From: Candidatus Saccharimonadota bacterium
Lineage (GTDB): Bacteria; Patescibacteriota; Patescibacteriia; 2-12-FULL-60-25
Direction: 5' to 3'
Assembly (NCBI GenBank): GCA_022843095.1
Contig: JALHOH010000001.1
Location: 390,001 to 422,000 of the forward strand
DNA length: 32,000 nt
Part shown: positions 27,992-31,955 of the stretch, one piece after another
How positions within the stretch are numbered: position 1 is the first letter of the stretch
Layout: each line of letters opens with the position of its first letter
Program-made: the position numbers and the translations under genes
Notes under the pieces: generated by a model
Database searches by the model: none
Told to the model about the DNA's origin: nothing
The model's input: only the letters and a program-made list of their open reading frames with translations

Positions 27992-28068
27992 GGGCGTGTA
28001 GCTCAGGTGGCTAGAGCGTCACACTGATAATGTGAAGGTCCCTGGTTCGAGTCCAGGCACGCCCACCA
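27992..28068 (+). tRNA. tRNA-Ile (anticodon GAT), CCA encoded
   Basis: Hand-folded cloverleaf. Acceptor GGGCGTG/CACGCCC, D arm GCTC/GAGC, anticodon stem TCACA/TGTGA with loop CTGATAA, T arm CCTGG-TTCGAGT-CCAGG, discriminator A, then CCA. Confidence 0.95.
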
Positions 28069-28069
28069 C

Positions 28070-28144
28070 GCGGGTATCGTATAGCGGCTATTATGCCACC
28101 TTGCCAAGGTGGAGATGGGGGTTCGACTCCCCCTACCCGCTCCA
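28070..28144 (+). tRNA. tRNA-Gly (anticodon GCC), CCA encoded
   Basis: Acceptor GCGGGTA/TACCCGC, anticodon stem CCACC/GGTGG with loop TTGCCAA, T arm GGGGG-TTCGACT-CCCCC, discriminator T, then CCA. The D stem is weak (3 bp plus a mismatch). Begins 1 nt after the CCA of tRNA-Ile. Confidence 0.92.
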
Positions 28145-28178
28145 ACAAGAACGCTTCTCGAAAGAGAGGCGTTTTTGT
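28122..28178 (+). repeat. Left copy of the 57-bp perfect direct repeat (attL-like): 3' 23 nt of tRNA-Gly plus 34 nt including the terminator
   Basis: Identical base for base to 31368-31424: ttcgactccccctacccgctccaacaagaacgcttctcgaaagagaggcgtttttgt. Confidence 0.95.
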
Positions 28179-28420: not shown

Positions 28421-29215
28421 ATGAATTTTTATAAATGCATCAATCGCATTTTTATTGTAGGGCTGATTGCCCCAGTCCTGCTTTTACTCGGCTCCGGTTG
28501 TCAGACCGACCAGATACAACAGCCGATTGTTCCGATCAAAGAAGTCTTGAGTCAGCAGACAGGGGCTCAAGGAACGCAACGGGAGGTAATTTCTCTTGCA
28601 GAACAAGAAAGCTCTAAGGATCTTTTACAAAGGTATTTCAATTTGATCGATCTGAAGAAATACGAGGATGCGTATGATCTGACATCGGAAGCCTTTAGGG
28701 CCAAGCATCCTTTTGAGAAGTGGAGAGATGGTTACAAAAATACACTGAGTCACAGCGTCGATTCTGTTTCTTGTCTCGAATTGTCATGTGTAATTGATTT
28801 AGTAGCAGCTGAGGACGATGAGAATGCGCTTATCAAGCAGCGCTATTCTATTCGATACGGAGTTGTTCGAGATAAATACAGTCGGTTGGTCATTGACACG
28901 GGATCTCTGATCTCAACAAAGCTGATTGAGACGGTGCGGAGCTATGAGGCCGTGACGGAGTCGGCGCCGACAACTAACATTGAATCCCCGGCATTGGTAC
29001 CTATACCAGCGCCGACCTCAAAAGCAGTCGTTCCCAGCAATCCGGCGCCGAACGGTACATATACCAATACTTACGGAAACGAAGTACCTAGCCCTTATTA
29101 CGCACCCTCTGCACCAGCTGGTGCATCAGCTCGGTGCAGGGACGGGACCTATAGCTTTAGCCAGAGCAGAAGGGGGACGTGTTCGCATCATGGGGGTGTC
29201 GAGGAGTGGTTGTAG
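28421..29215 (+). CDS. Islet-encoded lipoprotein with C-terminal DUF3761-like domain
   Basis: 264 aa. Signal peptide plus lipobox (IAPVLLLLGSGC). The central domain has a YFNLIDLKKYEDAYDLTSEAF...W..GY pattern. After a Pro/Ser-rich linker, the C-terminus ARCRDGTYSFSQSRRGTCSHHGGVEEWL matches my recollection of DUF3761. Confidence 0.7.
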   Translation: MNFYKCINRIFIVGLIAPVLLLLGSGCQTDQIQQPIVPIKEVLSQQTGAQGTQREVISLAEQESSKDLLQRYFNLIDLKKYEDAYDLTSEAFRAKHPFEKWRDGYKNTLSHSVDSVSCLELSCVIDLVAAEDDENALIKQRYSIRYGVVRDKYSRLVIDTGSLISTKLIETVRSYEAVTESAPTTNIESPALVPIPAPTSKAVVPSNPAPNGTYTNTYGNEVPSPYYAPSAPAGASARCRDGTYSFSQSRRGTCSHHGGVEEWL

Positions 29216-29453
29216 CGGATATGGGACCTGAGCTGATAATTATAGATAATGTATGGATGTAGATCGCACAGATGCGTAGAGATCGGTAAGCAGATCTGAT
29301 TCAGGGTTTCAAAAACTAGCCAATTTCGGCACAATCGCCAACATATTTTTGATAAGCTTCTATTTTTATTTTTTTCTCTCAGCTGTCCTCGCTGCTCTAC
29401 TAGATAAAGAGCGACATTTTTTAACTCCAGGGTTGTAGGTTTAAGGAAAGCTA

Positions 29454-31121
29454 ATGTTACCCATCAGAGCAAGTCATGATATTAACTTTTTGAATACAAA
29501 GGCGGCCCCGGGAGGCGGTCCTATCTTTGAAAATGAACTTATATCGGTTTTTAAGCGCCGTAGACTGGATGCCACCCTAGTCAGCTTAGGACGAGGTTCG
29601 ATAGGTGTAATTAAGCGTTCCGGCGCAGATCCAGATGTTCCGCATGGAATAGCACGAGATTCTGGAACGGGATTGATGTTTCCTGTTTGGTGTATGGCCT
29701 ACATGGCCAACATAGCGCTAATCTCTGGATCTAATGATTGGAAGGATGCACGGTTCACCGATGGGGAGCTATTGCTTTTAACAAATAACATTTATCCAGC
29801 GCTCGCTGAACCGATCATGCGAGACCATGATCAAATAGAAAGCGCCGAATTCCTCATCCAAAAGGATTTAGAGCAGTTTTCATGGCAACATTTTCCCGGA
29901 TATGAAATCGCGAGATCTTTAGTGCTGTACAATGAATTATTACCCTCAGTCTTTAGGGCTCGGCGCGATATCTTCAAGCACGATCCTGAAGAAGCCCTAG
30001 TGTCTGCAACTGGCCTAGGCATTAGAGAGCATTTGGTTATGGGTATGTGTGTCTGTGCACAAGCTTTAAGCAACGGAGCGATCATTCGACCGAGCCAATT
30101 ATTCAACGCGACCATCCCTTCATTGATGCCGCTCCTCACTCAAGAAAAAGTATTTGCGTATTTACATACGATATCGGGAGAATACGAAGAACTAAGAGAA
30201 ATAGATCAAGCAAGAAATGGAGTGGCCGACCCCTGGTATACAAAGCATCGGTTCAACCCTCTACGCGAGAAGCCATTGGCAAGATCAAAGCGCCTTTCAG
30301 AGGAAGCGCGTGAGGATGTCTACATCGCTCCTAGTTTTCAAATTTTAATGAACCGCGTACTCGCCGGTTTCTACTGGACAATCCATAGCATCCTTGAGAA
30401 AGACGGAAAGAAACACGGCCACTTCAGAGATGGGTTTGGTTACGTTTTTGAGGAGTATGTTGGTGGACTCCTAAAACGGATTAATCCGGACACTTTTTCT
30501 ATCTCTCAAGACAACTATCAATGTTTTGATTGGATAGTGCCTGCGGATGACGGTTTTGTTTTATTGGAAGCAAAAGCACTGCAATTCAATTTGACGAGTA
30601 AGACGTATCCTCAGAGGGAGCAGATAGTCAAAGAAGAGGTGATTCCAAAAATTATTGAAGCTCTTGTGCAGTGTAATAGAACGCTGGATGACATTGAGCT
30701 AAAACCTTCTTTAGCTATGCTGCGAGGGAAGTCATTAGTTCCCTGTGTGGTGGTTTGGGATGTGCCCTTGGTGGAGCAGGGCGGAATGGACAGATTCATC
30801 AAAAAAACACTGGATGATCTTACGCAGGGGGAGGTGTCAGATTCAGTAAAAAAACTATTGTCTCGAAAAAAGATTCAGTCGTACGAAATTGAAGCGCTCC
30901 GTAAGGATCGACCAGCTCTTATTTCAATTCGAGAGTTAGAGCTGCTTGAGGGTGTTGGGGGTCGGATATCGTTACGCAGTTTTCTTGAAAAGAAGAAGAT
31001 CTCGCAGTCAGGTGGACGTACGATACTAGCCACAGAAGTGCCAGACCTCCCTTTGACCTGTCCATATCTAGACAAAAAATACGAACAATACTGGAAAGAC
31101 GTAAGTGAAGGTGAATGGTAG
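29454..31121 (+). CDS. Islet-encoded 555-aa hypothetical protein with a PD-(D/E)xK nuclease-like motif set in its C-terminal half
   Basis: The only long ORF here. AAGGA lies 6 nt upstream of the ATG. Residues ~327-380 read GFGYVFEEYVGGLLKRI...CFDWIVPADDGFVLLEAKALQF: a helix with conserved E, a strand ending in D, and ExK 13 residues later. No Walker A, and no tyrosine- or serine-recombinase motifs seen. Confidence 0.7.
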   Translation: MLPIRASHDINFLNTKAAPGGGPIFENELISVFKRRRLDATLVSLGRGSIGVIKRSGADPDVPHGIARDSGTGLMFPVWCMAYMANIALISGSNDWKDARFTDGELLLLTNNIYPALAEPIMRDHDQIESAEFLIQKDLEQFSWQHFPGYEIARSLVLYNELLPSVFRARRDIFKHDPEEALVSATGLGIREHLVMGMCVCAQALSNGAIIRPSQLFNATIPSLMPLLTQEKVFAYLHTISGEYEELREIDQARNGVADPWYTKHRFNPLREKPLARSKRLSEEAREDVYIAPSFQILMNRVLAGFYWTIHSILEKDGKKHGHFRDGFGYVFEEYVGGLLKRINPDTFSISQDNYQCFDWIVPADDGFVLLEAKALQFNLTSKTYPQREQIVKEEVIPKIIEALVQCNRTLDDIELKPSLAMLRGKSLVPCVVVWDVPLVEQGGMDRFIKKTLDDLTQGEVSDSVKKLLSRKKIQSYEIEALRKDRPALISIRELELLEGVGGRISLRSFLEKKKISQSGGRTILATEVPDLPLTCPYLDKKYEQYWKDVSEGEW

Positions 31122-31367: not shown

Positions 31368-31424
31368 TTCGACTCCCCCTACCCGCTCCAACAAGAACGC
31401 TTCTCGAAAGAGAGGCGTTTTTGT
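31368..31424 (+). repeat. Right copy of the 57-bp direct repeat (attR-like): tRNA-Gly 3' fragment plus a second copy of the terminator
   Basis: Identical to 28122-28178. The sequence upstream (gaataagaa) does not continue the tRNA, so this is a 23-nt tRNA fragment and not a second tRNA gene. The hairpin plus T-run at 31397-31424 should terminate islet transcripts. Confidence 0.95.
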
Positions 31425-31484
31425 ATCCCGTTTCCTCCCTTGACGTTTTGCAAAAGATCAGGAACGGTGGCGGCGGAGGTTCGC

Positions 31485-31955
31485 ATGATTTCACGTCTGT
31501 TTCTCGAGATTCGTCGCGTGTTGGTTCGTACCGAATGTTTTCTCACGGTGCGCGAGGGATACGTCATCGACCCCGCGACATGGCATCCACTCGTGCCAAC
31601 GGAGGAGGAGCGACCGGTGCTTACTGCGATCGAGCGCGCTCATTGTCGGCAGATCGTCTGGGACGATTTGCTTCTGCCCTTCAAGGAGTATCTGGGACAC
31701 TACTCCGTGCCGCGTCGCGCAGGGGAGCCGATATCCGCGGCAAAGTTCACGGCGCTTCGGTTTCGTGGATTGCGTCATGATTTTCTCCTCGTCCTTGCCT
31801 GGAGTAATCAGGAGACGCGCGAGCCAGAGCATCCGATCGCGGTGTACGCAACGTCGTCGGATCCTGGAGATCGCGATGCGTTCTTCCGCGCCCTGACGGA
31901 GTACATATTCGGTCTTCCTGTGTTCACGGCGCGTCTGCCGGCTTTCGACGCCTGA
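31485..31955 (+). CDS. Hypothetical protein (156 aa)
   Basis: The track ORF starts at a TTG (31440). I prefer the ATG at 31485, which has GGAGG 6 nt upstream. Composition is GC-rich like the core genome. No family recognised. Confidence 0.55.
   Translation: MISRLFLEIRRVLVRTECFLTVREGYVIDPATWHPLVPTEEERPVLTAIERAHCRQIVWDDLLLPFKEYLGHYSVPRRAGEPISAAKFTALRFRGLRHDFLLVLAWSNQETREPEHPIAVYATSSDPGDRDAFFRALTEYIFGLPVFTARLPAFDA

Follow-up and report, generated by a model that had tools for sequence, protein, structure and literature searches.

Two single-protein defense nucleases offer the closest points of comparison for the gene described here. GAPS1, described in 2023-24, is an anti-phage system from the Gamma-Mobile-Trio islands of Vibrio parahaemolyticus that defends when cloned alone; HHpred places a PD-(D/E)xK domain towards its C terminus, and T7 protection is lost in the D313A and K328A mutants (bioRxiv 10.1101/2023.03.28.534373). 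T7 escape mutations fall in the capsid protein Gp10, and co-expression of Gp10 with GAPS1 leads to dormancy (bioRxiv 10.1101/2023.03.28.534373). Escherichia coli homologs of GAPS1 with just 24-29% identity are protective too (Mahata et al., bioRxiv 10.1101/2023.03.28.534373). The second, Upx (1212 aa; PDB 9wuf), has two nuclease domains, and its PD-(D/E)xK effector is kept in check by the other domains until a phage protein (gp16, terminase) relieves the inhibition or activates it (PMC13099982, PMC13601566). Here, we analyzed a 32,000-nucleotide stretch of a Candidatus Saccharimonadota contig (JALHOH010000001.1, positions 390,001 to 422,000; referred to below as the window), in which the gene at 29454..31121 probably encodes a divergent GAPS1-like single-protein anti-phage defense enzyme that combines a sensor with a PD-(D/E)xK effector.

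Homology of the window protein to GAPS1

The gene is an intact open reading frame (ORF) on the plus strand that starts with ATG and, with its stop codon included, spans 29454..31121, as a first-pass annotation made from the sequence alone had described it; a ribosome-binding site (RBS) lies upstream. A scan for sigma-70 promoters upstream of the gene found nothing exceeding background. The gene and its parts are as follows.

29454..31121 (+): GAPS1-like gene, 555 aa (ORF list; NCBIfam GapS1, E 2.6e-18; hhalign, 99% versus validated E. coli GapS1; dN/dS, the ratio of nonsynonymous to synonymous substitution rates, 0.08-0.09)
29443..29447 (+): AAGGA RBS, 6 nt 5' of the ATG (sequence; within the segment conserved in relatives from 29442)
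29454..30338 (+): N-terminal region, residues 1-295, predicted to be mostly helical (AlphaFold2 [AF2] secondary structure; conservation; aligned to GapS1 from residue 53 onward)
30339..30788 (+): predicted PD-(D/E)xK nuclease core, residues 296-445 (AF2 models; conservation; alignment with GapS1 E283/D315/D328/K330; Foldseek matches to PD-(D/E)xK enzymes)
30528-30530 (+): codon of D359
30567-30569 (+): codon of E372
30573-30575 (+): codon of K374
30789..31118 (+): C-terminal helical region, residues 446-555 (alignments; near-invariant ISIRELE motif, E496)

The sole family match of the protein was to NCBIfam NF047931 (antiphage_GapS1), with an E value of 2.6e-18 and 66.1 bits over residues 78-417 against profile positions 36-354 of 455. 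The same profile also matched 75 of 80 family members, with the best of 80 others at E 6.6e-32. The profile can be tied to a protein used in the published experiments: the supplement of the GAPS1 paper gives a synthetic EJP5250929.1 gene, a 380-nt fragment of which is 100% identical to a chromosomal E. coli gene that is annotated "gapS1: GapS1 family protein," encodes 508 aa, and scores 401.6 bits on NF047931. A search of the E. coli genome with the WP_152927281.1 fragment gave no match. When our family profile was aligned with this E. coli GapS1 using hhalign, the probability was 99.0 (E 4.7e-18) over 379 columns, joining profile positions 68-477 to E. coli GapS1 residues 53-458 of 508, and BLASTP of the window protein against the same sequence gave 25% identity over 168 aa (E 8e-7).

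Three motifs of the two proteins coincide in these alignments. The window protein reads FGYVFE333EYV where E. coli GapS1 reads FGRVFE283NAV, CFD359WIVPADDGFVLLE372AK374 where E. coli GapS1 reads VVD315FLLPHDEANIFID328AK330, and ISIRELE496 where E. coli GapS1 reads ISFEEFE. The mutagenesis primers for Vibrio GAPS1 decode to GKVV-D313-FLHQRNGTSIFI-D326-A-K328, which has the identical D-(12 residues)-(D/E)-x-K spacing; D359 and K374 are thus equivalent to Vibrio GAPS1 D313 and K328, with a D-to-K spacing of 15 in both. Judged by these alignments, the protein is a full-length, very distant GAPS1 homolog that has kept the experimentally essential residues. Because of this homology, the description of the protein as an orphan, given in the first-pass annotation, no longer holds, and the N-terminal region and C-terminal tail, which had been said to match nothing recognizable, belong to a homology with the GAPS1 family that extends over the whole protein.

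The likeness to GAPS1 extends to the overall build, a single protein of ~500 aa in which a helical N-terminal region precedes a PD-(D/E)xK core on the C-terminal side, to the FGxVFE helix motif, the IS..E.E C-terminal motif, and the spacing of the catalytic residues, and to carriage in mobile elements at an integrase-proximal cargo position. The gene is also a stand-alone one on a mobile element, with the caveat that a gene for an Mrr_cat protein adjoins its 78%-identical relatives. Unlike the Vibrio and E. coli proteins, which have DxK, the window protein has ExK; it shares only 17-25% identity with GAPS1, exceeds it in length by 45-100 residues, and carries in its C-terminal region a clade-specific insertion of ~25 aa (roughly residues 458-485) that the alignments show to be specific to the closest relatives. 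Defense activity has been shown for the Vibrio and E. coli proteins, whereas the clade described here is known from sequence.

Conservation of the active site and predicted fold

When 1.84 billion cluster representatives were searched exhaustively with HMMER, 377 relatives were retrieved at E<=1e-3, of which 162 reached E<=1e-10, and the majority are 500-560 aa long and align end to end; a word-indexed homolog search returned just 6-7, even when a 132-sequence profile was the query. Among 133 full-length homologs, D359 is retained by 132 (99%), E372 by 128 (96%), with D in its place in 3, and K374 by 125 (94%). E333, in the helix, is retained by 84 and replaced by Q in 39. Other near-invariant positions are F324, F328, G329, F332, Y335, G337, L340, W360, and E496, together with seven in the N-terminal region (L42, Q141, R154, N268, L270, P274, and P293). 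By this measure of sequence conservation, the PD-(D/E)xK motif is far above chance level. The first-pass annotation had recognized the motif in a peptide, GFGYVFEEYVGGLLKRI...CFDWIVPADDGFVLLEAKALQF, which corresponds to residues 327-378 and carries E333/E334, D359, E372, and K374 at the positions it had given. It had also named poor conservation of D359/E372/K374 in homologs as grounds for abandoning the assignment, an objection that conservation of 94-99% removes. Between the window gene and its relatives, dN/dS is 0.08-0.09 across four contexts, which indicates strong, sustained purifying selection on the gene.

The distant relatives, whose loci were recovered with a 15-sequence alignment pattern and which share 26-32% identity with the window protein, come mostly from metagenome-assembled genomes (MAGs) of Patescibacteria, the candidate phyla radiation (CPR), with others from Zixibacteria and Dadabacteria. 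Distant relatives are also encoded on plasmids of Streptomyces, Pseudomonas, Sinorhizobium, Arthrobacter, and cyanobacteria and carry the annotation "hypothetical" there. This distribution differs from that of GAPS1, with its Enterobacteria and Vibrio. A scan of IMG/VR found no viral relatives, and tblastn against phages gave a single marginal match. From the sequence comparisons, the protein belongs to a large sister clade inside the broader GAPS1 family.

The full-length AF2 model, built on a 132-sequence alignment, has a pLDDT (predicted local distance difference test) score of 93.8 and a pTM (predicted template modeling) score of 0.93. At the motif it consists of a helix (residues 321-343) with E333, short bridges (348-355), a strand (360-364) directly preceded by D359, a strand (367-377) bearing E372-x-K374, a helix (388-414), and a strand (427-436). 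In the model, this order is the canonical alpha-beta-beta-beta-alpha-beta core of restriction endonuclease-like enzymes, in which D opens the second strand and the third bears (D/E)xK; from this order, E333, D359, E372, and K374 would be expected to cluster in space. A domain-only AF2 model (residues 296-445; pLDDT 85.6) has the same secondary-structure order. The PD-(D/E)xK assignment of the first-pass annotation was therefore sound, with near-invariant motif residues set in the canonical order.

Searched against the PDB with Foldseek, the full model had one match below 1e-3, which was Upx (9wuf; E 9.3e-5, prob 1.0). The next matches were HindIII (prob 0.98), the R.BspD6I small subunit (0.91), Nt.BspD6I, Can2, Card1, Shedu, McrC, and Hjc. 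A profile search of PDB sequences gave a weak match (E 0.017) on the nuclease domain of Can2, in the motif region; weak matches to THP1 and DivIVA in the same search were regarded as spurious, and phmmer against PDB sequences gave chance matches only, e.g., FAK1. Apart from being the best structural match of the full-length model, Upx resembles what we propose for the window protein in that one polypeptide would hold an auto-inhibited PD-(D/E)xK effector that a phage protein activates. The window protein is nevertheless not a member of Upx: it is 555 aa long with one nuclease core, the TM-scores are low (0.29 and 0.17), and there is no sequence similarity, as Upx was not returned by the PDB profile search and PADLOC gave no match. 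With HindIII, BspD6I, Can2/Card1, Shedu, McrC, and Mrr, it shares the order of the core fold, the catalytic D...(D/E)xK, and recurrent structural matches. Unlike these classical nucleases, it has no Pfam or PADLOC family and lacks CARF, DUF4263, NERD, or Mrr N-terminal modules, and the domains that flank its core are GAPS1-specific. The first-pass annotation had named NERD, Shedu/DUF4263, Mrr_cat, and Cap4-type nucleases for comparison; membership in none of these was borne out by Pfam-A, even at E<=10, or by PADLOC-DB v2.

These structural likenesses raise the question of whether the protein is a solitary restriction-type (Type IV/Mrr-like) endonuclease that cuts foreign or modified DNA directly, with no sensing of a phage protein and no arrest of the host. 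The resemblance of its core to HindIII, BspD6I, and McrC would fit such an enzyme, as would the lack of a methyltransferase partner; the first-pass annotation had recorded neither a P-loop nor a methyltransferase gene, in agreement with the contents of the window. The Mrr_cat/NA-iREase1 gene that always adjoins the close relatives likewise suggests a restriction-like module. Nevertheless, GAPS1, a system that responds to a capsid protein with dormancy, is the one family to which the protein is significantly linked, and no match to Mrr_cat, NERD, or any other Pfam family was found. In addition, a restriction-type enzyme would leave the GAPS1-type N-terminal domain unexplained, as ~300 conserved N-terminal residues have no match to a DNA-recognition domain in Pfam. 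We therefore consider a restriction-type role unlikely.

The tRNA-Gly islet and the contexts of related genes

The gene lies in a 3.25-kb islet inserted at a tRNA gene, with a GC content of ~0.45 versus ~0.55 in the surroundings and only two ORFs, the nuclease gene and a lipoprotein gene. The features of the insertion site are the following.

27992-28068 (+): tRNA-Ile(GAT), just upstream of tRNA-Gly (ARAGORN; Rfam)
28070..28144 (+): tRNA-Gly(GCC), integration target (ARAGORN; Rfam)
28122..28178 (+): left copy of the 57-nt direct repeat, attL-like (repeat search; 3' end of tRNA-Gly plus terminator hairpin)
28421..29215 (+): 264-aa predicted lipoprotein (LLGSGC lipobox) with C-terminal DUF3761 (Pfam PF12587, E 5.9e-23)
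31368..31424 (+): right copy of the 57-nt direct repeat, attR-like, islet end (repeat search, 100% identity; GC back to >0.5 beyond)

The 57-nt repeat comprises the last 23 nt of tRNA-Gly and a terminator hairpin (-24.6 kcal/mol, z -6.3), so that a second copy of the terminator stands at the right end of the islet. No recombinase, integrase, or excisionase, nor a remnant of one, was found in the islet, which matches the tRNA-integrated, integrase-less islet that the first-pass annotation had outlined. These properties suggest a CIME-like (cis-mobilizable element-like) element mobilized in trans or a decayed island. The DUF3761 lipoprotein is co-cargo and not a conserved partner of the nuclease: DUF3761 is outside the 25 commonest of the 63 Pfam families among 103 neighbor proteins at 12 homolog loci. 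It may be a surface or exclusion protein. Outside the islet, the window has the content of an ordinary chromosome, with genes for MetRS, ClpB, PGI, PolX, a histidine kinase, an SNF2 helicase, and inorganic pyrophosphatase. The first gene past the right repeat (31440-31955, plus strand) encodes a 171-aa protein with no match in Pfam, NCBIfam, PADLOC, or PHROGs.

The closest relatives of the gene, with 78% protein identity and within one 90% cluster, lie on four other contigs (L013, L015, L017, and L018). In L013, the gene starts ~140 nt past a tRNA-Asp, and downstream of it come an Mrr_cat/NA-iREase1/DUF8426 nuclease gene, a large serine recombinase gene, and an HTH_17 gene. L015, from a groundwater metagenome, has the same gene order, with the gene (span 64-1842) frameshifted and split into ORFs 64-1149 and 1258-1842, i.e., either a pseudogene or an assembly error. 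In L017, an RHH/YoeB pair and a tRNA-Ser precede the gene, which is followed by the Mrr-like gene, a serine recombinase, QatB, ParB, two more serine recombinases, and a large terminase; this locus looks like a prophage-like element. The RHH/YoeB-type toxin-antitoxin pair, the QatB-like gene, the three serine recombinases, and the large terminase of L017 (2123-2606, 7100-7426, and 12613-14193) point to a small defense cluster beside an integrase. In L018, the Mrr-like gene, an IS630-type transposase, and type IV secretion genes come after the gene, and no tRNA was found. The Mrr_cat/NA-iREase1/DUF8426 gene is thus directly 3' of the gene in 4/4 close relatives, although these loci are not independent. 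Its coordinates are as follows.

L013 2053-3066: Mrr-like gene
L015 1864-2919: Mrr-like gene
L017 4532-5626: Mrr-like gene
L018 2124-3146: Mrr-like gene

Within that sub-clade, this neighbor could be functionally tied to the gene, or it could be a Type IV restriction gene in its own right. A tblastn search of the window for remnants of the Mrr-like gene or of a serine recombinase found none.

When the window was compared with all four relatives by blastn, similarity (76-77% at the nucleotide level) was confined to 29442-31119, i.e., the RBS and the ORF, while the flanks and the repeats were unrelated. This restriction of the similarity indicates that the gene has moved as a separate cassette from the cargo slot of one mobile element to that of another. 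Of the five contigs, three (the window, L013, and L017) have the gene next to a tRNA, a different one each time (Gly, Asp, and Ser). In E. coli (L016 4973-7527, Ecol_AZ147), gapS1 lies where a P2-like prophage adjoins the chromosome, directly downstream of the integrase and CI repressor genes of the prophage. This integrase-proximal cargo position is the same as that of the window gene's relatives.

As a more speculative alternative, the first-pass annotation had proposed that the protein is the enzyme responsible for insertion or excision of the islet. Such a mobility nuclease would cut the tRNA-Gly repeat in a TnsA-like manner; some transposition systems employ PD-(D/E)xK enzymes, e.g., TnsA in Tn7, and the islet has perfect 57-nt repeats yet no recombinase. 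The DNA shared with relatives is limited to the ORF and its RBS, so the ORF is all that the contexts have in common; the relatives sit at three other sites (tRNA-Asp, tRNA-Ser, and a type IV secretion element), in elements with serine recombinases, a transposase, or type IV secretion (conjugation) genes of their own. The protein has no site-specific recombinase or transposase domain in Pfam, and the ends of the element are not co-inherited with it. Duplication of a tRNA 3' end is the signature of integration by a tyrosine integrase and not of nuclease-mediated insertion. Among 12 distant relatives, only one (L011, with a tmRNA) has an RNA gene within about 1 kb; for the other 11, the nearest tRNA is at least 3.8 kb away or none was found. 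Repeats of tRNA or tmRNA ends were sought in L013 and in L011, the sole one of the 12 distant loci searched for them, and none flanks the gene. Finally, the homologous GAPS1 defends when cloned alone. A mobility function is therefore highly improbable. In L011 (8500-9019), which is from a Saccharibacteria MAG, the tmRNA lies ~1.1 kb upstream of the distant homolog, and its last 20 nt are repeated 199 nt downstream with 95% identity, which hints at a small insertion scar.

The neighborhoods of the 12 distant homologs contain housekeeping genes, three resolvases, an integrase, and AAA_25 proteins, as well as scattered matches to defense candidates (PDC-M37B, DolB, PDC-S23, viperin-like, and Cas4-like); no recurrent partner gene was found with Pfam or PADLOC. 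They fit a stand-alone gene in variable regions and give only modest evidence for enrichment in defense islands.

Proposed mode of action and position within the GAPS1 family

That the gene encodes a single-gene defense nuclease on a small mobile island, as the first-pass annotation had proposed, is supported by the GAPS1 homology and by the equivalence of the essential D and K. A defense function, a phage-protein trigger, and dormancy as the outcome would be expected by analogy with the GAPS1 experiments. Several observations weigh against this interpretation. The 66.1 bits of the protein are far under the curated NF047931 cutoff of 320, and for this reason we do not file it as a strict GapS1; ten clade members scanned individually reached 55-115 bits on the same profile. 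Pfam-A (even at E<=10), PADLOC-DB v2, and PHROGs gave nothing significant for the protein. As the identity to E. coli GapS1 is just 17-25%, the function could have diverged, and since the Mrr-like neighbor of the close relatives is missing here, the module in the window might be incomplete. Defense genes are only modestly enriched near the 12 distant relatives, and the neighborhoods include housekeeping genes. On the structural side, a search of BFVD gave no significant fold match, and neither did Foldseek with the domain-only model (best E 0.2; TM 0.2-0.36), whose top 50 matches are nearly all PD-(D/E)xK enzymes (arenavirus and bunyavirus cap-snatching endonucleases, the R2 endonuclease, Hjc, BspD6I, and HincII).

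Some of these observations would also be expected if the protein were derived from GAPS1 and had a different or lost role, as a toxin-like stress nuclease or as decaying, non-functional cargo on a dead islet. Besides the low family score and the missing Mrr-like neighbor, the islet has no mobility genes, and one relative (L015) is frameshifted. Against such a role, the ORF is intact and has kept every catalytic and family-invariant residue, and the dN/dS over four contexts speaks for purifying selection that has been sustained. We find a changed or lost role quite improbable.

GAPS1 homology, together with the analogy to Upx, leads us to propose that the window protein is a sensor and an effector in one. 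The N-terminal helical part (~295 residues), which by analogy with GAPS1 would be the sensory or regulatory portion, and the C-terminal region would hold the PD-(D/E)xK core inactive, and the same parts would recognize a phage protein made in infection, the trigger of GAPS1 being the major capsid protein. Once triggered, the site formed by E333, D359, E372, and K374 would bind a divalent metal and cleave nucleic acid, and the resulting growth arrest of the infected cell would abort the infection. The gene would move as a self-contained cassette of RBS and ORF in integration-proximal cargo slots, here in a 3.25-kb integrase-less tRNA-Gly islet. A more far-reaching interpretation is possible, if rather doubtful: the clade of ~377 clusters may be a sister family of GAPS1 that differs from it in function, responds to a phage trigger of its own, perhaps acts on a substrate of its own, and is overlooked by current defense annotation tools, and the recombinase-less islet may be a CIME-like minimal element that is mobilized in trans and delivers a single defense gene.

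The proposed mechanism is not new, as the logic of a single-protein sensor plus PD-(D/E)xK effector is already known from GAPS1 and Upx. We regard as mildly new the size and divergence of the clade, its invisibility to annotation tools, the occurrence of the more distant relatives recovered mostly in CPR and other uncultured bacteria, the shuffling of a tRNA-proximal cassette, and the 3.25-kb islet without an integrase. An ORF-sized cassette found at three different tRNA-adjacent sites and in a conjugative element would represent a single defense gene that is shuffled between cargo slots. If the function is as proposed, the GAPS1 defense family would extend to a large, very divergent clade that is missed by Pfam, PADLOC v2, and the NCBIfam cutoff, and whose distant members are mostly found in small-genome uncultured bacteria, where phage defense is poorly charted.

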